This document shows positions 678 through 30,963 of a DNA stretch of 32,000 bases, piece by piece. Under the pieces are notes generated by a model. It had not been told where the DNA came from. It saw nothing but the letters and a program-made list of their open reading frames with translations, and did no database searches. This stretch comes from Xanthomonas campestris pv. campestris str. ATCC 33913 (GTDB taxonomy: Bacteria; Pseudomonadota; Gammaproteobacteria; Xanthomonadales; Xanthomonadaceae), in contig NC_003902.1 in the NCBI RefSeq assembly GCF_000007145.1, positions 757,436-789,435 of the forward strand. The letters run 5' to 3'. Position 1 is the first letter of the stretch; each line of letters begins with the position of its first letter. A program made the translations under genes and the position numbers.

Positions 678-1508
678 TCAGGCGGTCTCGGTGGAGGCGG
701 TCTTGGCCTGGCGCGCGGCACGCGCACGGGGGCCGTGAAAATATTCCTGGATCCAGGGGTGATCGACTTGTTCGATTTCGGCCAGCGGGGCGTTGGCGAT
801 CACCTTGCGATCGGCCAGCACCGCGATGCGGTCGCAGATGGCGTACAGCGTATCCAGGTCGTGGGTGATCAGGAACACGGTCAGGCCCAGGGCCTGCTGC
901 AATGTGCGGATCAGCCGGTCGAAGGCGGCCGCGCCGATTGGATCCAGCCCGGCGGTGGGCTCGTCCAGGAATAGCAGCGGCGGGTCCAGTGCCAACGCCC
1001 GCGCCAGTCCGGCGCGCTTGCGCATGCCGCCGGACAATTGCGAGGGCAGCTTGTCCAGCGCGTCGGCGGGCAAACCGGCCAGCTTGATCTTCAACAGCGC
1101 CAGTTCGAAATACCAGCGCTCGGGGAATTCGCCGTGATGCTCCTTCAGCGGCACCTGCACGTTCTCGCCGACGGTCATCGAGGAAAACAGCGCGCCGTCC
1201 TGAAACAGCACACCGGTGTTGCGGGTGATGTGCTGGCGATCGACGAAACGGCCCGAGCGCGCATCCGCGCCAAGCACCTGGATGCTGCCGGCATCGGGTT
1301 CGCGCAGGCCCAGGATGCTGCGCATCAACACCGACTTGCCGGTGCCCGAGCCGCCGACCACGCCCAGGATCTCGCCGCGGCGCACGTCCAGGTCGAGCTC
1401 TTCGTGGACGACCTGGCTGCCGAACCGGTTGGTCAGCCCGCGCACGGAGATTGCCAGCTGGTCGTCGTCAGTCTCGGGAGTGGTGATTTGGGATTCGGGA
1501 TTGGTCAC
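678..1508 (-). CDS. ABC transporter ATP-binding protein, MlaF-like
   Basis: 276 aa. Walker A GGSGTGKS, ABC signature LSGGMRKR, Walker B LLFLDEPTAGLD, H-loop ITHD. GTG start at 1508 preceded by GAGAGG. Sits between the MlaE-like and MCE genes. Confidence 0.9.
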   Translation of the reverse strand: MTNPESQITTPETDDDQLAISVRGLTNRFGSQVVHEELDLDVRRGEILGVVGGSGTGKSVLMRSILGLREPDAGSIQVLGADARSGRFVDRQHITRNTGVLFQDGALFSSMTVGENVQVPLKEHHGEFPERWYFELALLKIKLAGLPADALDKLPSQLSGGMRKRAGLARALALDPPLLFLDEPTAGLDPIGAAAFDRLIRTLQQALGLTVFLITHDLDTLYAICDRIAVLADRKVIANAPLAEIEQVDHPWIQEYFHGPRARAARQAKTASTETA

Positions 1509-1587
1509 AGCAGGCCTCTCGCGAGCGCGGAGACGCCCGCGCGTGTGCTTTGCACGAATCCCGAATCCCCAATGTCGAATCCCGGCC
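1485..1587. repeat. Palindromic heptamer-repeat element (GGGATTC ... GAATCCC type)
   Basis: Perfect 13-bp inverted repeat gggattcgggatt (1490-1502) / aatcccgaatccc (1557-1569), plus a further gaatccc unit at 1577-1583. Fills the mlaE-mlaF junction and overlaps the first codons of the ATPase. Confidence 0.65.
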
Positions 1588-1590
1588 TCA

Positions 1591-2703
1591 TCACCACCCC
1601 ATCTTCATGAACCACAACGCCGCAATTGCGTCGAGGATGATGACCAAGGAAATCGTCTGCACCACCGAAGAAGTGGTGCGTTCGCCCACCGACTGCGCGG
1701 TGCCGCTGACCTTCAAACCCTCCAGGCAGCCGATCAGGCCGATCACCAGCGCAAACAGCGGCGCCTTCGACAGGCCGACCAGGAAGTGCCGCAGCTGGAT
1801 GGTGTCGTGCATGCGCGCCAGGTACATCTGCGGCGGAATATCCAGATCGAACGCGCCCACGGTGACGCCACCGGCCAGGCCGGCGATCATCGCGATGAAG
1901 GTCAGCAAGGGCAGGGTGAAGATCAGCGCCAGCAGGCGCGGGATCACCAGCAGGTCGATCGGGTCCAGGCCCAGGGTGCGGATGGCATCCACTTCCTCGC
2001 GCGATTTCATCGCGCCGATCTGCGCGGTAAACGCGCTGGCGGTGCGGCCGGCCAGGACAATAGCGGTGAGTAGTACGGCAAATTCGCGCAGGAACGCGAT
2101 CGACACCAGTTCCACCACATAGATCTCCGCGCCGAAGTCGCGCAGGATCGTCGAGCCCAAAAACGCGATCACCGCGCCCACCAGGTACGACAGCAGCACC
2201 ACCAGCGGCACCGCATCCAGCCCCACCTGTTCCATGTGGTGCACGGTGGAGGTGAGCCGGAAGCGGCGCGGTTCGTGGATCAGTCGCGCGATCTTGACCA
2301 GGTTCTCGCCCAGGAAGCTGTTGAGCTCCAGGATGCCCTGGCCCACGCCGTGGGTGGTGCGGCCCAGACGGTCGAGCGCGGCGACAAAGCCGTAATCGCG
2401 CTTGGGCTTGGGGCGCTCGTCGTTGAGTTCCTCGATGGTGCACACCAGTGCCTGGTGCTCGTCGCGGAAATCGATGGCGTCTTCTTTCAGGCCCATGCGG
2501 CTGGCAAAGCGCAGCAGCTGCAGTACCCCGGCCGAATCCAGTTGCCCGATGCCACGCGCGTCGATGCGGCGCACCCCGTCGGGAACGGCTTGCAGCAGCT
2601 CGGCCTGGGGCAGGGCGGTGGCCAGGACCCAACTGCCGGCGAGGCGTACCTCGGCATGGTCCTGCGAGTCTTGTTCTATGCGTGGCGGTTGCGGTTTGAT
2701 CAT
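1591..2703 (-). CDS. MlaE-family ABC permease with N-terminal STAS/MlaB-like domain
   Basis: 370 aa from ATG at 2703 (MIKPQPPRIEQ...). The N-terminal ~100 aa (AEVRLAGSWVL...IDARGIGQLDSAGVLQLLRF) looks STAS-like. The C-terminal ~260 aa is a multi-TM MlaE-like permease (…REFAVLLTAIVLAGRTASAFTAQIGAMKSREEVDA…). The 814-aa track ORF is an upstream over-extension antisense to the next gene. Confidence 0.85.
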   Translation of the reverse strand: MIKPQPPRIEQDSQDHAEVRLAGSWVLATALPQAELLQAVPDGVRRIDARGIGQLDSAGVLQLLRFASRMGLKEDAIDFRDEHQALVCTIEELNDERPKPKRDYGFVAALDRLGRTTHGVGQGILELNSFLGENLVKIARLIHEPRRFRLTSTVHHMEQVGLDAVPLVVLLSYLVGAVIAFLGSTILRDFGAEIYVVELVSIAFLREFAVLLTAIVLAGRTASAFTAQIGAMKSREEVDAIRTLGLDPIDLLVIPRLLALIFTLPLLTFIAMIAGLAGGVTVGAFDLDIPPQMYLARMHDTIQLRHFLVGLSKAPLFALVIGLIGCLEGLKVSGTAQSVGERTTSSVVQTISLVIILDAIAALWFMKMGW

Positions 2704-2868
2704 GGGCGGCCTGTCCGTGGCGTCAGCATACAGTGGCTGGCGTGAGCGAATGATGGGGAGTAGCTGCGCGCACGGCGACAGCGACCGGCGATGGCGACCA
2801 CGGGCCAGGCGTGCTGCGCATACACTGGCGTCCTCGCCCAGGCGCCGCTTCGATCCGACCCGCCACGC

Positions 2869-4128
2869 ATGTCTGCTGCCACCGTTGTTCCATCGTCCGC
2901 CGGCGCAACCTACGCGCAACGTGTCGCCTTCGTGTCGGAAATCGCCGGGCGCCTGCATTCCTATGGCACCACCGCGCAGCGGCTCGAGGCGGCGGTGATC
3001 GGCCTGTCGCAGAAACTGGGGCTGGATTGCGAGCCCTGGTCCAATCCCACCGGCATCATCCTGAGCTTCAGCGACCCGACCAAGTCGATCGGCTCCAGTG
3101 ACATCACCCGCGTGATCCGCCTGGCGCCGGGCGAGAACGACCTCTACAAACTCAGCGTCGCCGACTACGTGGCCGACAGCGTCGCCAGCGGGCGCATGAG
3201 TATTGCCCAGGGCCACACGGCCCTGCGCCGTCTTGACCGCGAGACGGACCGGCGCGGCAAGGCCCTGCAGGTGCTGGCGTTCGGCCTGGCCGCGGCCGGG
3301 GTGGCCGGGCTGTGGAAGCTGCCGTGGCTGGACATCGCCACCGCCGGGGTGATCGGCATGTCGATCGGGCTGCTCACCCAGTACACCGACAAGCGCCCGG
3401 CCACCAAGGAGGCCGGCGAAGCACTGGCCGGGCTGCTGGCCGGCGTGGTCGCTGCGCTGGTGGCCTCGCTGGTCGGCCCGCTCAATCTCAATACGGTGAT
3501 CATTGCCTCGCTGGTGGTGCTGCTGCCCGGTATGTCGCTGACCAATGCGTTCAACGAGTTGGCCAGCCAGCATTGGGTGTCGGGCACGGCGCGCCTGGCC
3601 GGTGCGGTCACCACGGTGCTCAAGCTCACCGTGGGCGCGGTGATTGCGGTGACGTTGACCCAGTTGGTGGGCTTGAACCCGCAGGTCGCCGCGGTGCGCC
3701 CACAGGCCGGCTGGGTGGAATGGGCCTCGCTGCTGGTGGCCGCGTATGCGTTCGCGGTGCTGTTCAAGGCCAATCGCCGCGATTATCTGTGGATCATGGC
3801 GGCGGCCATGTCCGGGTATGTCATCGCACGTTATGCCGGGCATGCCTGGGGCGGGCCGGCCGGCGTGTTCGCATCGGCGATGGCATTGACCGCCGCCGGA
3901 AATCTGTTTGGACGTGTGGTGCAAAAACCCGGTGCGCTGATCCGGTTGCCGGGCATCATCATGCTGGTGCCCGGTAGCACCAGTTTGCGCGGGTTTTTGA
4001 CCCTGGTGCAGCAGCAGGATGTCACCGTCGGCCAAGCTGCACTATTGGCGGTCACCAATATCGTGATGGCTTTGGTGGCCGGATTGCTGTTTGGCAATCT
4101 GCTGATCCCGGCCCGCAAGAATTTATGA
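2869..4128 (+). CDS. Threonine/serine exporter (ThrE) family membrane protein
   Basis: 419 aa from ATG 2869 (MSAATVVPSS...). An N-terminal soluble-like region is followed by about 10 hydrophobic segments, which is the typical DUF1212+DUF3815 layout. Strong GC3 bias. Confidence 0.75.
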   Translation: MSAATVVPSSAGATYAQRVAFVSEIAGRLHSYGTTAQRLEAAVIGLSQKLGLDCEPWSNPTGIILSFSDPTKSIGSSDITRVIRLAPGENDLYKLSVADYVADSVASGRMSIAQGHTALRRLDRETDRRGKALQVLAFGLAAAGVAGLWKLPWLDIATAGVIGMSIGLLTQYTDKRPATKEAGEALAGLLAGVVAALVASLVGPLNLNTVIIASLVVLLPGMSLTNAFNELASQHWVSGTARLAGAVTTVLKLTVGAVIAVTLTQLVGLNPQVAAVRPQAGWVEWASLLVAAYAFAVLFKANRRDYLWIMAAAMSGYVIARYAGHAWGGPAGVFASAMALTAAGNLFGRVVQKPGALIRLPGIIMLVPGSTSLRGFLTLVQQQDVTVGQAALLAVTNIVMALVAGLLFGNLLIPARKNL

Positions 4129-6448: not shown

Positions 6449-8143
6449 TCAGTTCCCAAGCCGGGAGAATAACCCGGCCTTATCCAGGTTTTCTGCCGAT
6501 TCGGCGGTGCGGGCGCGATATTCAAAAGTCCCGGCCGCCAATCCACGCTCGGACACCACCACGCGGTGCGGAACGCCCAGCAGTTCCATATCGGCAAACA
6601 TGGCGCCCGGTCGCAGGCCGCGATCGTCCAACGCCGCGTCGATGCCGGCGGCGATCAATTCCTCCAGCAAGTCACCGGCCGCGGCAGCCACCTGCGCGTC
6701 CTGCTTGGGGTTGATCACGCACACCACCACCTTCCACGGCGCCATCGGCGCGGGCCAGACAATGCCGGCGTCGTCGTGGTTCTGTTCGATTGCCGCCGCC
6801 ACGATGCGCGAGATGCCAATGCCGTAGCAGCCCATCTTCATCACCGCAGCCTTGCCGTTTTCATCCAGCACGGTGGCCTGCAGCGCTTCGGCGTATTTAC
6901 TGCCGAGCTGGAACACATGCCCCACTTCGATGCCGCGGGTCAGGCGCAGCTCGCCGCCGTCGCTGGCCCGGTCGCCGTCCACGACATTGCGCACGTCGGC
7001 CACGGTCTCCGGTTCGGGCAGGTCGCGGCCCCAGTTGACCCCGGTCAGGTGCACGCCTACCGCGTTGGCACCGACCACGAAATCAGCCATGGCCGCGACG
7101 TCGCGATCGGCAATAATGCGAATCGGCTGGGCCGGCTGCACCGGGCCCAGGAAGCCGGGCTCGCTGCCCAGGTGCTGACGGATCTCGCTTTCATTGGCCA
7201 GCCGGTAGTCGGCCATGCCGGCGACCTTGGCCAGCTTGAGCTCGTTGACGGCGTGATCGCCACGCACCAGCACCAGCACGAAGCCGGCGGTGGTCATCAC
7301 CGCGATCGACTTCACCGTGCGCTGCAGCGGCAGGCCCAGCAACTGGGCCACGTCTTCGCAGGTCTTCTGGGTAGGTGTGTCCACGCGCTGCAGGGTCTCG
7401 CCGGCAGCCGGGCGCGGTGCGGGCAGGGCGGCGCTGGCGGTTTCCACATTGGCTGCGTAGTCCGAGCCGGTGGAGAACGCCAGCGAGTCCTCGCCCGATT
7501 CGGCGATGACATGGAATTCCTGCGAGGCATCGCCGCCGATTGCGCCGGAGTCGGCCTGCACCGCGCGGAACTCCAGCCCCAGCCGGGTAAAGATGCGGAT
7601 ATAGGCGGCTCGCATGTTGTCGTACTCGCGCGCCATGTCCGCATCGGTGAGATGGAACGAATAGGCGTCCTTCATCAGGAACTCGCGTGCACGCATCACG
7701 CCGAAACGCGGGCGGATTTCATCGCGGAACTTGGTCTGGATCTGGTAGAAATTCAGCGGCAGCTGCTTGTAGCTGTTGATTTCCTGGCGCGCGAACTCGG
7801 CCGCGGCTTCTTCGGCGGTCGGGGTGTAGCAGAACTCCTGTTCCTTGCGGTCCTTGATCTTCAGCAATTGCCCGCCGAACTTTTCCCAGCGGCCGGTCGC
7901 GTCCCACAGCTCGCGCGGCTGGATGGTGGGGAACAGCACTTCCACCGCCCCGGCGCGGTTCATTTCCTCGCGCACGATGGCCTCGACCTTGCGCAGCACG
8001 CGCAAGCCCAGCGGCGACCAGGTGTACAGCCCGGAGGCCAGCTTGCGGATCATGCCCGCGCGCAGCATCAGACGGTGGCTGACCAGCTCGGCGTCGGCCG
8101 GGGTTTCCTTGGTGGTGTGCAGGTGGAACTGGGAAAGACGCAT
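6449..8143 (-). CDS. proS: Proline--tRNA ligase
   Basis: 564 aa. [42 protein letters not shown]..., with class II aaRS motifs and the bacterial-type editing insertion. Full-length. Confidence 0.97.
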
Positions 8144-19158: not shown

Positions 19159-19584
19159 CTACATGTCGTATTTCGTGAGTTCCAGGCCCAGGGCCTTGTA
19201 CTGCTTCCAGCGTTCGCGCAGCGGTTCGCGGGCGGCGGGGTCGGCGGGCACCACTTCCAGCACGCGGTCGCAGGCGCCCAGGTACGGGTCGTCGCGCAGG
19301 TTGATCACCAGCGGGCGCGAGGGCGCGGCGAACTCGGGCGTTGCGATCAGCACCGGCGCCAGTTCGTCTTCCTCATCGGTGCCGGCGATCTGGTGCGGCA
19401 CATAGGCTTCGTCGTCGAACGCCCACAACAGGTCATCCAGCGCCTCGGCCTGTGCGGCATCGCGCGCCAGGATCAGCGTGGACAGGTTGGCATCGTTGGC
19501 CTTGCGCGCCAGCTCGCAGACCAGCCGCAGCGGTTCGTCGAGGAAGCGCGGTTTGGCGATCAGGTAAAAGTCGGCACGGGGCAT
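19159..19584 (-). CDS. holC: DNA polymerase III chi subunit
   Basis: 141 aa. MPRADFYLIAKPRFLDEPLRLVCELARKA...LWAFDDEAYVPHQ. Located immediately downstream of pepA, as in E. coli. Confidence 0.9.
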   Translation of the reverse strand: MPRADFYLIAKPRFLDEPLRLVCELARKANDANLSTLILARDAAQAEALDDLLWAFDDEAYVPHQIAGTDEEDELAPVLIATPEFAAPSRPLVINLRDDPYLGACDRVLEVVPADPAAREPLRERWKQYKALGLELTKYDM

Positions 19585-19586
19585 CA

Positions 19587-19707
19587 GGGCAGGGAATCGG
19601 GAGAGGAGAGTTGGGAATGGTCACGGCACCGCCGCGACCTCGAAGGTCGCGGCGGTGCCTGAAAGGAAAGGGCTTTCACGATTCCCTATTCCCGATTTTC
19701 AATTCCC
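19587..19707. repeat. Palindromic heptamer-repeat element (GGGAATC ... GATTCCC type) with central perfect hairpin
   Basis: Left arm gggcagggaatcgggagaggagagttgggaatgg. Centre ggcaccgccgcgacc-tcgaa-ggtcgcggcggtgcc, a 15-bp perfect stem at 19625-19659. Right arm attccctattcccgattttcaattccc, which overlaps the pepA stop and its last two codons. Confidence 0.65.
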
Positions 19708-21180
19708 ACCTTCGGCGCGGTCCAGCAACCACTGGGTCAGCAGGCCGACCGGGCGGCCGGTGGCCATGCCGCGCTTGCCTTCGTCGCTGGCCACGCCGGC
19801 GATGTCCAGATGCGCCCAGCGCTGGTTTTCGGTGAAGCGCGACAGGAAGCAGCCGGCGGTGATCGCGCCACCCCAGCGGCCGCCGATGTTGTAGACGTCG
19901 GCGAAGGTGGAATCCAGCAGGCCCTGGTATTCGTCCCACAGCGGCAGGCGCCAGGCGCGGTCGAACACGTGCTCGCCGGCGGCCAGCAGTTCATTGGCCA
20001 GATCGTCGTGCTTGCTCATCAATCCGGCGGTCTGGTGGCCCAGGGCCACCATGCAGGCGCCGGTCAGCGTGGCCACGTCCACCAGCGCTTCGGGGTTGAA
20101 GCGCTCGGCGTAGGTCAGCGCATCGCACAGGATCAGGCGGCCTTCGGCGTCGGTGTTGCCGACCTCGATGGTCTTGCCGGACATGCTGGTGATCACGTCC
20201 GAGGGACGATAGGCATTGCCGTCGATGGCGTTTTCCACCGCCGGCACCACCACCACCAGGTTGATCGGCAGCTCGGCCTTGACCGTGGCCACGAAGGTGC
20301 CGATGACGTTGGCGCCGCCGCACATGTCGTACTTCATTTCCTCGATGCCGCCCTGCGTCTTGAGGTTGACGCCACCGGTATCGAAGGTGATGCCCTTGCC
20401 GACCAGCACGTAGGGGCGCGCCTCGCCGCCGCCGTTCCACTTCAGCACGATCAGGCGCGGGCGGTTGGCCGAGCCACGCGCCACCGACAACAGCGAGCCC
20501 ATGCCCAGCGCTTCCATCTGCTGCTCGTCCAGGATCTCGGCCTCGGCGCCGGGGAACTTGCCGGCGAAGGCGGCCGCGGTCTCGGCCAGGTAGGCCGGGG
20601 TGCAGTAGTTCGGCGGCAGGTTGCCCAGCTCGCGGGCGAACTCCACGCCTTCGGCGGTGGCGATACCCACGGCCAGGGCGCGGGCGTCGTCGCCGGCGAT
20701 CGCCAGGGTGGTCAGGCCGGTGTCGTCGACCTTCTTCTTGCCCAGCGTGGCGGTGTAGCGGTAGGCGGCATGGTCGCTGACGATGACGGCCTGGCGGATG
20801 TTCCAGGCTGCGTCGCGTGCCTTGACGGGCAGTTCGGTCAGGGTGAGCAGGGCGGTGCCGATCGGGCCGGTCTTCAATGCGCGGGCCGCATCGCCGATGG
20901 CCTTGAGGTAGGGCGCCACGCCAAACTTGGCGGCATCGCCCAGGCCCACCACCAGCACGCGCGGGGCCTGCACGCCGGGCAGGTCATGCACCAGGCTGGT
21001 GGTGCCGGTCTTGGTGGCCACATCGCCCCGTGCCACCAGCGCCGTCAGGCGGCCCTGGCTGGCGCTGTCCAGCGCCTGGGCAGCGGGCGAGAGGGTCTTG
21101 TCGGCGAACGCGCCAACCACGATGCAGTCGACGTGGGCGCTTGCCGGCGCGTCTTGGTTCAGGGTGAATTGCAGGGCCAT
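19699..21180 (-). CDS. pepA: Leucyl aminopeptidase
   Basis: 493 aa. M17 family signature [14 protein letters not shown] and [10 protein letters not shown]. Confidence 0.97.
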
Positions 21181-26916: not shown

Positions 26917-29900
26917 ATGATGGTCCTCGAGGGCGCTTCCGCCCTTTCGCCGTTCCGCCGCGCTCGGCTCGAAACCCGCCTGCAAACGCTCGTCCCCGCG
27001 CTGCGTCTCACTGGCGCCTGGCACGTGTACTTCATCCGTGCCGATGCCGGGCGCACGCCCGACCAGGCCACCTTGCAGCGCATCCTGCAGGCCGAGCCGG
27101 CGCCTGCGCCGCGCGATGAGGCTGCCTCTTCGCGCTACGTGGTGCCACGGCTCGGCACGCTGTCGCCGTGGTCGAGCAAGGCCACCGAGCTGATGCGCGG
27201 AGCCGGGCAGCCGATCCAGCGCGTGGAGCGCGGCACCCGGATCGATCTGGCCGGGTGGCCGGAAGGCGAGGCCGATCAGGCCGCGGTGGCCAAGCTGTTG
27301 CACGACCCGATGACGCAATCGTTGCTCGGCTCGGCCGCAGCGGCCGAAGCGCTGTTCAACGTGCCCGATCCCGGCCAGCTGGAACGCATCCCGCTGGATG
27401 CGCTGGAACAGGCCAATGGCGATCTGGGCCTGGCACTGGCGCAGGACGAGATCGACTACCTGCGCGAGCGCTTTGCCGCGCTCGGCCGCGACCCGGCCGA
27501 CGTCGAACTGATGATGTTCGCGCAGGCCAACTCCGAGCACTGCCGGCACAAGATCTTCAACGCCAGCTGGACCATCGACGGCAAGCCGCAGGAGCGCTCG
27601 CTGTTCCGGATGATCAAGCACACCCACCAGCAGACCCCGCAGCACACCTTGTCGGCCTATAGCGACAACGCGGCGGTGGTGGAAGGCGTGCCGGCGGCGC
27701 GGTTCCGCCCCGATCCGGCCACCGGCGAATACCGCAGCGAAGCGGTGGTGCCCTCGGCCTTCGCCATCAAGGTGGAAACCCATAACCATCCCACCGCGAT
27801 TGCGCCGTTCCCGGGCGCGGCCACCGGTGCCGGCGGCGAGATCCGCGACGAAGGTGCCACTGGCCGCGGTGGCAAGCCCAAGGCCGGCCTGACCGGGTTT
27901 TCGGTGTCGCATCTGCGCATCCCGACCTTGCCGCAGCCGTGGGAAGCGCCGCGCGCGCTGAATCCGCGCATGGCGCCGGCGCTGGACATCATGCTCGACG
28001 GCCCGCTCGGCGGCGCGGCATTCAACAACGAGTTCGGCCGGCCGAACCTGCTTGGCTACTTCCGCAGTTTTGAGCTGGCCGAAGGCCAGGGCCTGACCCG
28101 CGCCTACGACAAGCCGATCATGCTGGCCGGCGGCCTGGGCGCGATCGACCGCAACCAGGTCGAAAAGCTGCGCCTGCAACCGGGCGATGCGGTGATCGTG
28201 CTGGGTGGCCCGGCGATGCTGATCGGTCTGGGCGGCGGCGCCGCCAGTTCGGTGGCCGCCGGTGACAGCGCCGAGGCGCTGGACTTTGCCAGCGTGCAGC
28301 GCGAGAACCCGGAGATGGAACGCCGCTGCCAGGAGGTCATCGACCACTGCGTGGCACTGGGCACCGATAACCCGATCCGCTGGTTCCACGACGTGGGCGC
28401 CGGTGGCCTGTCCAACGCGATCCCCGAGTTGCTGCACGACTCCGGCGTGGGCGGGGTGATCGACCTGGCCAGGGTGCCGAGCGACGACCCGTCGCTGTCG
28501 CCGCTGGAGTTGTGGTGCAACGAATCGCAGGAACGCTACGTGCTCGGCGTGCCGCAGGCGCGCCTGGACGAATTCGCCGCGATCTGCGCACGCGAACGCT
28601 GCCCGTTCGCCGCCGTCGGCGTGGCCACGGCCGAGGAACGGCTGGTGGTGGGGTATGGCGTTTTTGACGCAGCGAATCGGGAATCGGGAATCGGGAATCG
28701 CAACAGCGCGTTGCCGGCTGCCGAGGCCGCTTCCGCCCATTCCCTATTCCCCACTCCCGATTCTCCGCTCCCGATCAACCTGCCCATGGACGTGCTGTTC
28801 GGCAAGGCGCCGAAAATGCACCGCGATGCCGTGCATCCGGCGGCGCCGCAGTGGCCGGTGCTGCAGACCGGGGCGCTGGATCTGCAGGAGGCCGGGTTGC
28901 GCGTGTTGGCGCATCCGACCGTGGCGTCCAAGAGCTTTCTGGTCACCATCGGCGATCGCAGCGTGGGCGGGCTGACCGCGCGTGAACAGATGATCGGGCC
29001 GTGGCAGCTGCCGTTGGCCGATTGCGCGATCACGCTGGCCGGGTTCGAGACCTTCGATGGCGAAGCGATGTCGATTGGCGAGCGCACGCCGCTGGCGCTG
29101 CTGAACGCCGCGGCCTCGGCGCGCATGGCGGTAGGCGAGGCGATCACCAACCTGTGTGCGGCGCCGGTGCAGACGCTGGACAGCATCAAGCTTTCCGCCA
29201 ACTGGATGGCTGCCGCCGGACACGCCGGCGAAGACGCCTTGCTGTACGACGCAGTGCGCGCGGTCGGCATGGAACTGTGCCCGGCGCTGGAGCTCAGCAT
29301 CCCGGTGGGCAAGGACTCGCTGTCGATGCAGGCGCAGTGGCAGGTCGGGAATGGAGAATCGGGAATCGGGAATGGTGAAACGCCAGCACCGTCCGCTTCT
29401 GCCATTCCCGATTCCCGACTCCCGATTCCCGGTGAAACGCTGAAAAGCGTTTCACCGGTATCGTTGATCATCAGTGCATTTGCGCCCGTCAGCGATGTGC
29501 GTACGCAGCTCACTCCGTTGCTGCAGCGCGAGGATGAGAGCGAGCTGTGGTTGATCGGCCTGGGTGGCGGCAAGCAGCGTCTGGGTGGGTCGGTGCTGGC
29601 GCAGGTGTATGCCGATGACAGTGCGTTGCCGGCCTTCGGTGGTGAAACACCGGACCTGGATGACCCGCAGCGGCTGCGCCAGTTCTTTGAACTGATCCGC
29701 GATGCACGCGAGGGTGGATTGTTGCTGGCGTATCACGATCGCAGCGATGGCGGTGCGTTTGCCGCGCTGTGCGAAATGGCGTTTGCCTCGCGCCAGGGCC
29801 TGGATATCACGCTCGACGCCTGGGGCGATGATGCCTTCCGCAGCCTGTTCAACGAAGAATTGGGCGCGGTGGTGCAGATCGCCAATGAAGACCGCGCCGC

Positions 29901-30963
29901 GTTTGCCGATCTGGTCGAGCGGCATGCACTGACCGAATGCGCGCAACGCATCGCACGCCCCACCGGCACCCCGCGCGTGCGTGTCAGCGGCCAGGGCCGG
30001 GTGTTGGCCGAATGGCGCTGGGAAGCGCTGTTCGATGCCTGGTGGTCGGTGACGCACGCCATGCAGAAGTTGCGCGACAACCCGGACAGTGCCGACGAAG
30101 AACGCGCGGTGGCGCGCAACTTCCAGGCGCCGGGGTTGCGCCCGAAGCTGGTGTTCGACCCGTCCGAGGATGTGGCCGCGCCATTCGTGGCGACCGGTGC
30201 ACGGCCGAAGGTGGCGATCCTGCGCGAGCAGGGCGTCAACGGCCAGATCGAGATGGCCTACAACTTCGAGCGTGCCGGGTTCCGTGCGTTCGACGTGCAC
30301 ATGAGCGACCTGATCGAAGGCCGCGTGGACCTGGCGCAGTTTGCAGGATTTGCGGCTTGCGGCGGCTTCAGCTACGGCGATGTGCTGGGCGCCGGCCGCG
30401 GTTGGGCCACCTCGATCCTGGAGCGTGCGGCACTGCGCGATGCGTTTGCCGCATTCTTTGCGCGCAGCGATACCTTTGCGCTGGGCGTGTGCAACGGTTG
30501 CCAGATGCTGAGCCAGCTCAAGGACATCATTCCCGGTGCCGAGCACTGGCCGCGCTTCCTGCGCAACCGCAGCGAGCAGTTCGAAGCACGCACGGCGCTG
30601 CTGGAAGTGGTGGAGTCGCCGTCGATCCTGCTGCGGGGCATGGCCGGCTCGCGCATTCCGGTGGCAGTGGCGCATGGCGAAGGCCGCGCCGAATTCGACA
30701 CGGCGGTGGATCAGGCCGCGGCGCGCGTGGCACTGCGCTTCATCGACGGTGACGGCGCGGTGGCTAGTCAGTACCCGCTCAATCCGAACGGGTCGCCCGA
30801 CGGCATCACCGGCCTGACCAGCACCGATGGGCGCGCCACCATCTTGATGCCGCATCCGGAGCGCACGCCGCGCTCGGTCAATCTGAGCTGGCATCCGGCG
30901 GGCTGGGGCGAGGACTCGCCGTGGCTGCGCATGTTCCGCAATGCGCGGGTGTGGTGTGGTTGA
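26917..30963 (+). CDS. purL: Phosphoribosylformylglycinamidine synthase (large single-chain PurL)
   Basis: 1348 aa. Starts [14 protein letters not shown]. Contains the AIR-synthase-like duplicated core and a C-terminal glutamine amidotransferase domain (GVCNGCQM ... HGEG ... PHPER). Confidence 0.98.
28674..28776. repeat. Palindromic heptamer-repeat element inside purL (copy A, degenerate right arm)
   Basis: (gaatcgg)x3 + gaatcgc at 28674-28701, a 37-nt spacer, then attccct/attcccc/actcccg/attctcc/gctcccg at 28739-28776. Translated in frame as [10 protein letters not shown]...[12 protein letters not shown]. Confidence 0.65.
29347..29456. repeat. Palindromic heptamer-repeat element inside purL (copy B)
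   Basis: Perfect 15-bp inverted repeat gggaatcgggaatgg (29361-29375) / ccattcccgattccc (29402-29416). A second perfect hairpin ggtgaaacgc-tgaaaa-gcgtttcacc lies at 29431-29456. Translated in frame as [11 protein letters not shown]...[19 protein letters not shown]. Confidence 0.7.

Follow-up and report, generated by a model that had tools for sequence, protein, structure and literature searches.

The 32,000-nt stretch of the Xanthomonas campestris pv. campestris (Xcc) ATCC 33913 chromosome analysed here (hereafter the window) contains purL, and within purL lie two palindromic elements built of tandem heptamers, designated copy A and copy B (the corresponding positions in other genomes are referred to as sites A and B). 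The host open reading frame (ORF) at 26917-30963 was identified as PurL by matches to Salmonella PurL structures with E = 0 and by 100% identity to the X. campestris PurL proteins P0121/P0122. The features in and around copy B, together with its sister element, are as follows.

26917..30963, + strand: purL (phosphoribosylformylglycinamidine synthase, 1348 aa), host of both in-frame elements, from the ORF and its translation
28672..28772, + strand: copy A, sister 4+4 heptamer palindrome in purL, in frame, PurL residues ~586-619
29346..29431, + strand: copy B, 4+4 heptamer palindrome in purL, in frame, PurL residues ~810-839, an 86-nt palindrome
29347..29374, + strand: copy B left arm, four G-rich units GGGAATG GAGAATC GGGAATC GGGAATG
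29375..29402, + strand: copy B loop GTGAAACGCCAGCACCGTCCGCTTCTGC, whose ends fit the inner-stem consensus of the family
29403..29430, + strand: copy B right arm, four C-rich units CATTCCC GATTCCC GACTCCC GATTCCC
29374..29383, + strand: direct repeat GGTGAAACGC, first copy, at the loop start and part of the family inner stem
29431..29440, + strand: direct repeat GGTGAAACGC, second copy, host codons G-E-T and left arm of the downstream hairpin
29429..29458, + strand: perfect 13-bp hairpin CCGGTGAAACGCT GAAA AGCGTTTCACCGG, arms 29429-29441 / 29446-29458, host codons G-E-T-L-K-S-V-S-P

Two in-frame heptamer palindromes in purL

The original prediction, made from the letters of the window, had described four GGGAATC-like units followed after 26 nt by four GATTCCC-like units inside purL, and this is what is read at 29347-29374 and 29403-29430. 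A repeat finder placed the arms of the inverted repeat at 29346-29375 / 29402-29431 (30 nt, 90% complementary, 26 nt apart), and direct reading of the sequence gave the expected 15-bp inverted repeat without mismatch at 29361-29375 / 29402-29416. Matches to GGGAATCGGGAAT with ≤2 mismatches numbered 18 in the window; 0.66 were expected and no more than 4 turned up in any of 100 shuffles, so the heptamers are not due to chance. The strong mRNA structure proposed for this part of purL was recovered in the predicted RNA fold of 29335-29470 (-71.6 kcal/mol versus -43.5 ± 4.0 in shuffles, z = -7.0). In the sense orientation, the left arm of copy B contains three GGG tracts plus GAG and GG; the right arm, read antisense, contains four (GGGAATCGGGAGTCGGGAATCGGGAATG). 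As three heptamers make up 21 nt (3 × 7 = 21), the arms encode cyclic peptides of the GNRESGI-like and DSRFPIP-like kinds, and the loop between them is orthologous to the loops of other Xanthomonas at that site. Copy A follows the same plan, with GCGAATC and three GGGAATC units on the left (~3.9 perfect tandem units at 28673-28699) and cattccc tattccc cactccc gattctc on the right.

Both elements coincide with extra length in the protein. Alignment with Salmonella PurL (6JT9/1T3T) breaks into three pieces and leaves query residues 584-617 and, after RWQEGNEQ, 815-842 unmatched, where the Salmonella chain shows gaps of 1-2 residues (603 to 606 at copy A and 801 to 803 at copy B); the ~25 extra residues estimated at copy B in the original prediction amount to ~27. 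Relative to Stenotrophomonas (L002), each site is longer by 81 nt or 27 codons (120 versus 39 nt and 102 versus 21 nt), and because the two sites add 27 codons each, the whole length difference between Stenotrophomonas PurL (1293-1294 aa) and Xcc PurL (1348 aa) is accounted for. In an AlphaFold2 model covering PurL residues 201-1010 (mediocre overall, with a mean predicted local distance difference test [pLDDT] score of 63.7), residues 586-614 and 813-833 were modelled as coil with pLDDT <50 in otherwise confident surroundings, the latter segment lying between two strands. Both inserts are predicted to form disordered loops of ~27 residues rich in Gly, Asn, Ser and Pro.

A second perfect hairpin had been reported downstream of copy B; it exists, with arms of 13 bp and not the 10 bp claimed. 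Its left arm also recurs at the start of the copy B loop, as had been noted, giving the direct repeat GGTGAAACGC at 29374 and 29431. Because the left arm resembles ancestral PurL (GGCGAAACGC in Arenimonas [L009] and GGCGAAGCGC in L005, both of the form GGCGAA(A/G)CGC and both without the insert) and the right arm AGCGTTTCACCGG encodes the invariant K-S-V-S-P of the conserved KSVSPV, this hairpin is host sequence outside the repeat element, paired by accident or by drift. The K-S-V-S-P stretch uses A/T-ending codons (AAA, GTT, TCA), GTT TCA being common to clade-II Xanthomonas purL, and comparison of codons across species showed the hairpin to be perfect in Xcc only, where GGT replaces GGC. The GGTGAAACGC pair was also considered as a target-site duplication and rejected, since its first copy fits the inner stem, its second consists of ancestral PurL codons, and the pair brackets only the loop and right arm, half of the element.

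The heptamers belong to a family catalogued by Rehm et al. (2015, PLoS One, PMC4692102), who reported 186 arrays of GGGAATC/(GGGANTN)n repeats in ATCC 33913 and 183 in X. citri 306 (Xac), with arrays of four units favoured, 70-75 convergent pairs in each genome (70 in ATCC 33913), 89-93% of repeats in intergenic positions and no association with insertion sequences or transposons. G-quadruplex formation was shown in vitro; polymerase slippage was favoured as the origin of the repeats and phase variation was argued against (PMC4692102). The supplementary table of that study lists #26 GCGAATCGGGAATCGGGAATCGGGAATC, #27 GGGAATGGAGAATCGGGAATCGGGAATGGTGAAAC and #28 GGGAATCGGGAGTCGGGAATCGGGAATG as “intragenic: purL XCC0656”; copy A is #26 and copy B is #27/#28, with sequences identical to those of the window, and both arms of copy B have the features by which arrays were defined (≥14 bp, ≥2 GGGANTN units and ≥1 exact GGGAATC). 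Intragenic arrays are also listed in mreC, and Xac purL carries repeats #155-157, for which the RNA-seq assembly notes record one transcript that “starts within 155 ... middle of gene” and a 632-nt transcript that includes #156/157 (PMC4692102). These transcript ends are at best a hint of RNA processing and may be an assembly artefact.

The published family is thus the same as that of copies A and B, including the four-unit preference, the convergent pairs and the dispersal over the genome, and neither the family nor its purL arrays are new. Coding copies were left out of the transcript analysis and most other analyses of Rehm et al. (PMC4692102), where the arrays are viewed as simple repeats with G-quadruplex potential; that account does not deal with in-frame translation, mapping to PurL loops, genus-wide persistence, the inner-stem consensus, unit switching on two arms or copying from site to site. 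The coding nature and evolution of the purL copies are the new part.

From ~45 convergent pairs (those of the window plus the purL neighbourhoods of ten relatives), the design of the family was found to be fixed, usually comprising 28 nt (four units) per side, an inner stem and a variable loop of 16-110 nt. The inner stem begins approximately as GNNAARGC at the left and ends approximately as GCTTYYSAC at the right, and is common to genic and intergenic copies. No target-site duplication was found in the flanks of 25 elements, which often prolong the palindrome (gcc before and ggc after the element). No Rfam family was detected at the purL region, a permissive run giving only microRNA-precursor noise (24-32 bits versus gathering thresholds of 67-168) that represents generic long-hairpin hits, and a scan of the region returned no promoter-like or terminator-like site at the elements.

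Distribution and turnover of the PurL inserts

Both PurL sites were filled in all ~30 PurL clusters from Xanthomonas and Pseudoxanthomonas, with both major Xanthomonas clades represented, and also in one “Stenotrophomonas sp.” (MMGLT7); they were empty in typical Stenotrophomonas. Of 89 purL loci, 13 contained a three-unit pattern (GGGANTNGGGANTNGGGANT), every one of them from Lysobacterales (Xanthomonas, Pseudoxanthomonas, Chiayiivirga, Dokdonella and a Rhodanobacteraceae genome), and the other 76 lacked it. The copy B segment itself was lacking in Salmonella, Stenotrophomonas and ~75 further gammaproteobacterial PurL genes. Solitary in-frame arrays were found at site A in the Rhodanobacteraceae genome (AESRIPNPESRV), Dokdonella and another Lysobacteraceae genome (L018, L016, L010), and site A held unrelated inserts in Luteimonas and S. 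acidaminiphila. The two PurL loops accept unrelated extra sequence, and site A is a permissive spot that has been used repeatedly.

Two of these unrelated inserts deserve separate description. In Luteimonas sp. RC10 (L006), purL has non-heptamer inserts at site A (QSLPPHAGEGARRAEGGEAASGGNASQH) and at site B (DTAGASVSSSAPSQSADNVT) alike. Site A of S. acidaminiphila (L090, ~7735-7860) contains a 29-aa non-heptamer insert with GC-rich hairpins (CCCGGCGC-AGC-GCGCCGGG), which may be a different repeat, similar to the repetitive extragenic palindromic (REP) type, in the same PurL loop; no second copy of it was found in its 16-kb locus.

Natural alleles exist in which the inserts are reduced. X. arboricola P0132/L081 encodes an intact PurL of 1329 aa lacking exactly the 57 nt between the GGYGAAACGC repeats (the loop plus the right arm), inserts are shortened or decayed in X. 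fragariae, X. protegens and several metagenomic PurL proteins, and P0132, P0135, P0147 and P0160 are half-deleted or decayed. On the strength of these deletion and decayed alleles, it is argued that the insert peptide is not required. All 21 measured purL inserts were multiples of 3. Truncated PurL fragments from long contigs (P0045, P0005, P0067, P0041) were considered as possible products of phase variation and dismissed, since they break at places that bear no relation to the repeats.

Genomes carry different arm units: Xcc, P. mexicana and some X. arboricola have GGGAATC, X. sacchari has GGGATTC/G, X. translucens has GGGACTC and GGGACCG, and X. melonis has GGGACCC. These types are scattered over the tips of a PurL tree built without the inserts, and intergenic arrays near purL tend toward the unit type of their own genome. 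Across AAT, ATT, ACC and ACT types, the 28-nt arms remain 75-100% complementary. Comparison of two independent pairs of close relatives showed accelerated divergence confined to the elements plus at most ~10 nt: Xcc and the X. campestris-lineage genome L088 differed at 29% of positions inside elements versus 5.3% at four-fold sites, and X. arboricola L089 and X. sp. MLO165 (L082) at 22% versus 4.2%. Between Xcc and L088, every left-arm unit had changed from A to T and the right arm carried the complementary change. By contrast, Xcc and X. arboricola L089, which share a unit type, differed by 15.6-17% in the elements versus 24% at four-fold sites. Slow divergence within a type and fast divergence across types indicate that the elements occupy discrete states, conserved better than neutral sequence, with rapid switches between them.

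One element appears to have been caught between states: site B of L082 is a half-switched intermediate whose left arm is GGGAATC and whose right arm is CAATCCC, and its minimum free energy (MFE) is -38 versus ~-52. Since the valS-holC intergenic site is also of different types in two X. arboricola genomes (GGGAATC at L081 2469-2577 versus GGGATTC at L089 ~2390-2565), unit switching is not peculiar to purL. An inversion or register shift was examined as the cause of the change from GGGAATC to GGGATTC and rejected, as the reverse complement of a whole element gives the same arms.

Sites A and B were more alike within one genome than site A was to site B of a different genome (permutation P = 0.009). 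The extreme case is X. melonis (L083, 11777-11917 and 12494-12646), in which the two sites share 81% identity over ~150 nt, including ~80-nt loops that were not found in other species, and PurL contains two near-identical peptides of ~45 residues (GTRDPGPGTRE...VPGPG). The site A loop of Pseudoxanthomonas resembles the site B loop of Xcc. Within-genome similarity of the two sites and the identity seen in X. melonis lead to the view that whole elements have been copied over one another.

Explanations for the inserts and their rewriting

We consider it likely that copies A and B are tolerated passengers resembling Rickettsia palindromic elements (RPEs), housed in permissive loops of PurL and homogenised by copying between element copies. 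Both copies belong to a Lysobacterales-wide family with four GGGANTC-type heptamers, an inner stem, a loop and four inverted heptamers, and lie in frame in two permissive, predicted surface loops, where they would be transcribed and translated with the gene. Selection on purL would then filter variants only by length (a multiple of 3) and freedom from stop codons, and the element sequence would be repeatedly overwritten from other family copies, either by ectopic gene conversion or by replacement, A and B exchanging sequence as well. Such overwriting is proposed as the reason why purL genes that are otherwise near-identical carry different unit types, the change usually affecting both arms. 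The data show the anatomy of the elements, their in-frame state, their phylogenetic distribution, their accelerated and patterned divergence, the likeness of A and B within a genome and one deletion allele; that the elements are passengers, that gene conversion rewrites them and how they first arrived is what we infer in this account.

Several observations weigh against it. No empty purL site was found within the Xanthomonas examined, and the word “inserted” is itself an interpretation, as neither a target-site duplication nor a transposase was found. Conservation of the elements between Xcc and X. arboricola, together with persistence across the genus, could reflect a selected function. It is difficult to envisage RecA-type conversion from one unit type to another, given that AAT and ATT arms share perfect runs of 6 nt at most. 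Right arms of the ATT type have junction details in common in L082 and L088 and are ~24% apart, which is about the neutral level; short-tract allelic recombination of old alleles could, on such comparisons, account for part of the pattern. Finally, translation of the inserts is presumed from the intact ORF, and their placement in disordered loops depends on an AlphaFold2 model of mediocre quality (mean pLDDT 63.7, as above).

The arrays might instead have been born in place, a chance proto-unit having grown by replication slippage and hairpin template switching having produced the inverted arm, without any insertion. Site A offers CCCGATC (P-I-D) and site B AATGG (N-G) as candidate proto-units, and unit-like ancestral seeds are seen in Stenotrophomonas (gcCCCGATCgac, site A) and Arenimonas (GGCGAAACGC, site B); the solitary single-strand arrays at site A of L018, L016 and L010, the lack of target-site duplications and the preference of Rehm et al. 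for slippage all fit. Yet slippage by one unit within purL would shift the frame, genic and intergenic copies share the 4+4 design and the inner-stem consensus, and both the likeness between the Pseudoxanthomonas A loop and the Xcc B loop and the ~80-nt loops shared within X. melonis imply that whole elements were copied. An origin in place is possible, but we regard it as unlikely.

A further alternative, which we judge decidedly unlikely, is that a dedicated and novel process actively maintains and rewrites 4+4 hairpins genome-wide, essential genes included, through either an element-specific enzyme or structure-directed templated repair, the PurL loops being cassette-like hypervariable segments. 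Under such a process, the unit (GGGAATC, GGGATTC or GGGACCC) would be switched, usually on both arms, in the time that neutral sites change by ~5%, and the PurL loops would be written at the nucleic-acid level, not by protein-level selection. It might also explain why heptamer hairpins occur in both Lysobacterales and filamentous cyanobacteria.

It is also conceivable that the elements serve purL, with a hairpin or G-quadruplex tuning translation, mRNA decay or co-translational folding, or with the loops modulating assembly or activity. Points in its favour are the retention of both sites across the whole genus, the survival of arm complementarity through unit changes, divergence below that of four-fold sites between Xcc and X. 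arboricola, and a very stable predicted structure, and Xac transcripts break at purL repeats in the RNA-seq assembly. However, the peptide and the unit type vary freely, as does the length of the loop (16-110 nt), half-deleted and decayed alleles occur in nature, the arms of site B in L082 are non-complementary (MFE -38), the sense left arm has three intact GGG tracts only, Stenotrophomonas PurL and all others work without inserts, and the breaks in the transcripts could be artefacts of assembling repeats. A role for the elements in purL is accordingly doubtful, and we give it little credence.

A contingency (phase-variation) switch, in which reversible gain or loss of one 7-nt unit frameshifts purL, is very improbable. 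The ~3.9 perfect tandem units in copy A (28673-28699), the array lengths that vary between Xcc and Xac, and the existence of Xanthomonas tandem-repeat typing (multilocus variable-number tandem-repeat analysis [MLVA]) schemes would suit it, but none of the ~30 full-length Xanthomonas PurL clusters is out of frame and every insert length is a multiple of 3, truncated PurL fragments break away from the repeats, copy B units are imperfect, and Rehm et al. argue against phase variation for the heptamer family. That the segment is merely an old conserved PurL loop of no repeat-element origin, an outcome for which the original prediction had allowed, is refuted by the present results: these loop positions are length-variable in many lineages, but the segment is missing from Salmonella, Stenotrophomonas and the 76 other purL loci, it is palindromic at the nucleotide level (z = -7), and it shares the design of intergenic copies and of a family of 186 catalogued arrays.

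Relation to other repeats and further copies of the family

The original prediction had likened copy B to RPEs, and the resemblance holds as an analogy, in that a palindromic repeat is translated in frame in loops of housekeeping enzymes. [quoted passage not shown] (2000/2002), RPEs are palindromes of ~100-150 bp found in frame in unrelated housekeeping genes; nearly half of RPEs lie in ORFs, and their peptide segments are judged compatible with the host fold. The Xanthomonas hosts comparable to those in that summary are purL (twice), X. translucens valS and mreC (Rehm et al.), and copy B likewise is an in-frame palindrome in a host ORF (86 nt, +27 codons, with the 1348-aa ORF intact). Set against RPEs as so described, the Xanthomonas element belongs to Lysobacterales, an unrelated lineage, and is 89-93% intergenic. 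Its encoded peptide also differs in being of low complexity and predicted to be disordered. The arms of the Xanthomonas element are tandem heptamers, which those of RPEs are not known to be.

Like REPs, bacterial interspersed mosaic elements (BIMEs) and REPINs, the heptamer elements are short, abundant hairpin repeats that lie mostly just downstream of ORFs, with lineage-specific variants and inverted doublets that yield a long hairpin; they differ in having no GT(A/G)G head and in being built of tandem units. The REP of X. campestris associated with REP-associated tyrosine transposases (RAYTs) is GTAGGAGCGCGCTCGCGCGCGA (Nunvar et al. 2010), and membership of copy B in the REP/REPIN class was rejected, no GTAGGAGCGCGCTCGCGCGCGA-type motif being found within 29340-29460. 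Terminal inverted repeats (28-nt arms, 75-100% complementary) recall MITEs, but the flanks of 25 elements carry no target-site duplication. The purL element is probably not a member of the RPE, REP or MITE families. A formal parallel is found in a different phylum, where the heptamers of cyanobacteria (Nostoc, with GGGGA(C/T)T repeats [PMC4692102], and Calothrix) are likewise tandem, G-rich and often arranged as convergent pairs.

What appears to be new, as read from the sequences compared here, is an in-frame, translated, genus-wide RPE-like insert in two predicted disordered loops of one enzyme that is rewritten in concert. It would provide, in a free-living plant pathogen, a clear case of the RPE phenomenon, with a selfish or structural repeat translated within essential enzymes. 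With purL as an internal clock, the element is seen to change 4-6 times faster than neutral sites with its hairpin mostly preserved, which makes the origin, upkeep and homogenisation of heptamer repeat families testable in a tractable organism. In practical terms, the ~27-residue PurL segments, together with those of ValS and MreC, should be masked in alignment, phylogeny and annotation pipelines.

A motif confined to purL, which the original prediction had entertained as an outcome that would undo it, was not what was found: in addition to the 186 catalogued arrays (PMC4692102), four family elements lie in the window, namely copies A and B and two intergenic elements.

1476..1569, strand not assigned: intergenic element of the alternative unit GGGATTC / GAATCCC, between minus-strand ORFs 678-1508 and 1591-4035
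19592..19707, strand not assigned: intergenic GGGAATC-type element in the holC-pepA spacer, with a GC-rich inner hairpin

The element at 1476-1569 means that both unit types coexist in Xcc. That at 19592-19707 lies between holC (19159-19584) and pepA (19699-21180), both on the minus strand, with its right arm adjoining the pepA stop codon, and its loop holds a 15-bp GC-rich inner hairpin (GGCACCGCCGCGACC TCGAA GGTCGCGGCGGTGCC). In L088 and L082, the holC-pepA spacer is instead filled by an ORF of 120-123 aa.

Outside the window, X. translucens valS (L084, 375-408) contains an in-frame solitary (GGGACTC)4 array encoding the peptide GRDSGLGTRDS, which Xcc ValS does not have. A search with the translated consensus peptide returned 511 proteins, and almost every one of the best 120 was a tiny ORF, either of Xanthomonas or, unexpectedly, of a cyanobacterium (Moorena, Spirulina or Microcoleus); among these best 120 matches, the small cyanobacterial ORFs carry (DSRFPIP)n, which corresponds to (GATTCCC)n. 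The heptamer unit is thus also abundant in a phylum unrelated to that of Xanthomonas. Many spurious “hypothetical proteins” in which GNRESGI or DSRFPIP is repeated are explained by the heptamer family. The tiny “hypothetical proteins” of Moorena, Spirulina and Microcoleus (within P0241-P0360) are translated GATTCCC/GGGAATC heptamer arrays, and the ORFs concerned are probably annotation artefacts.

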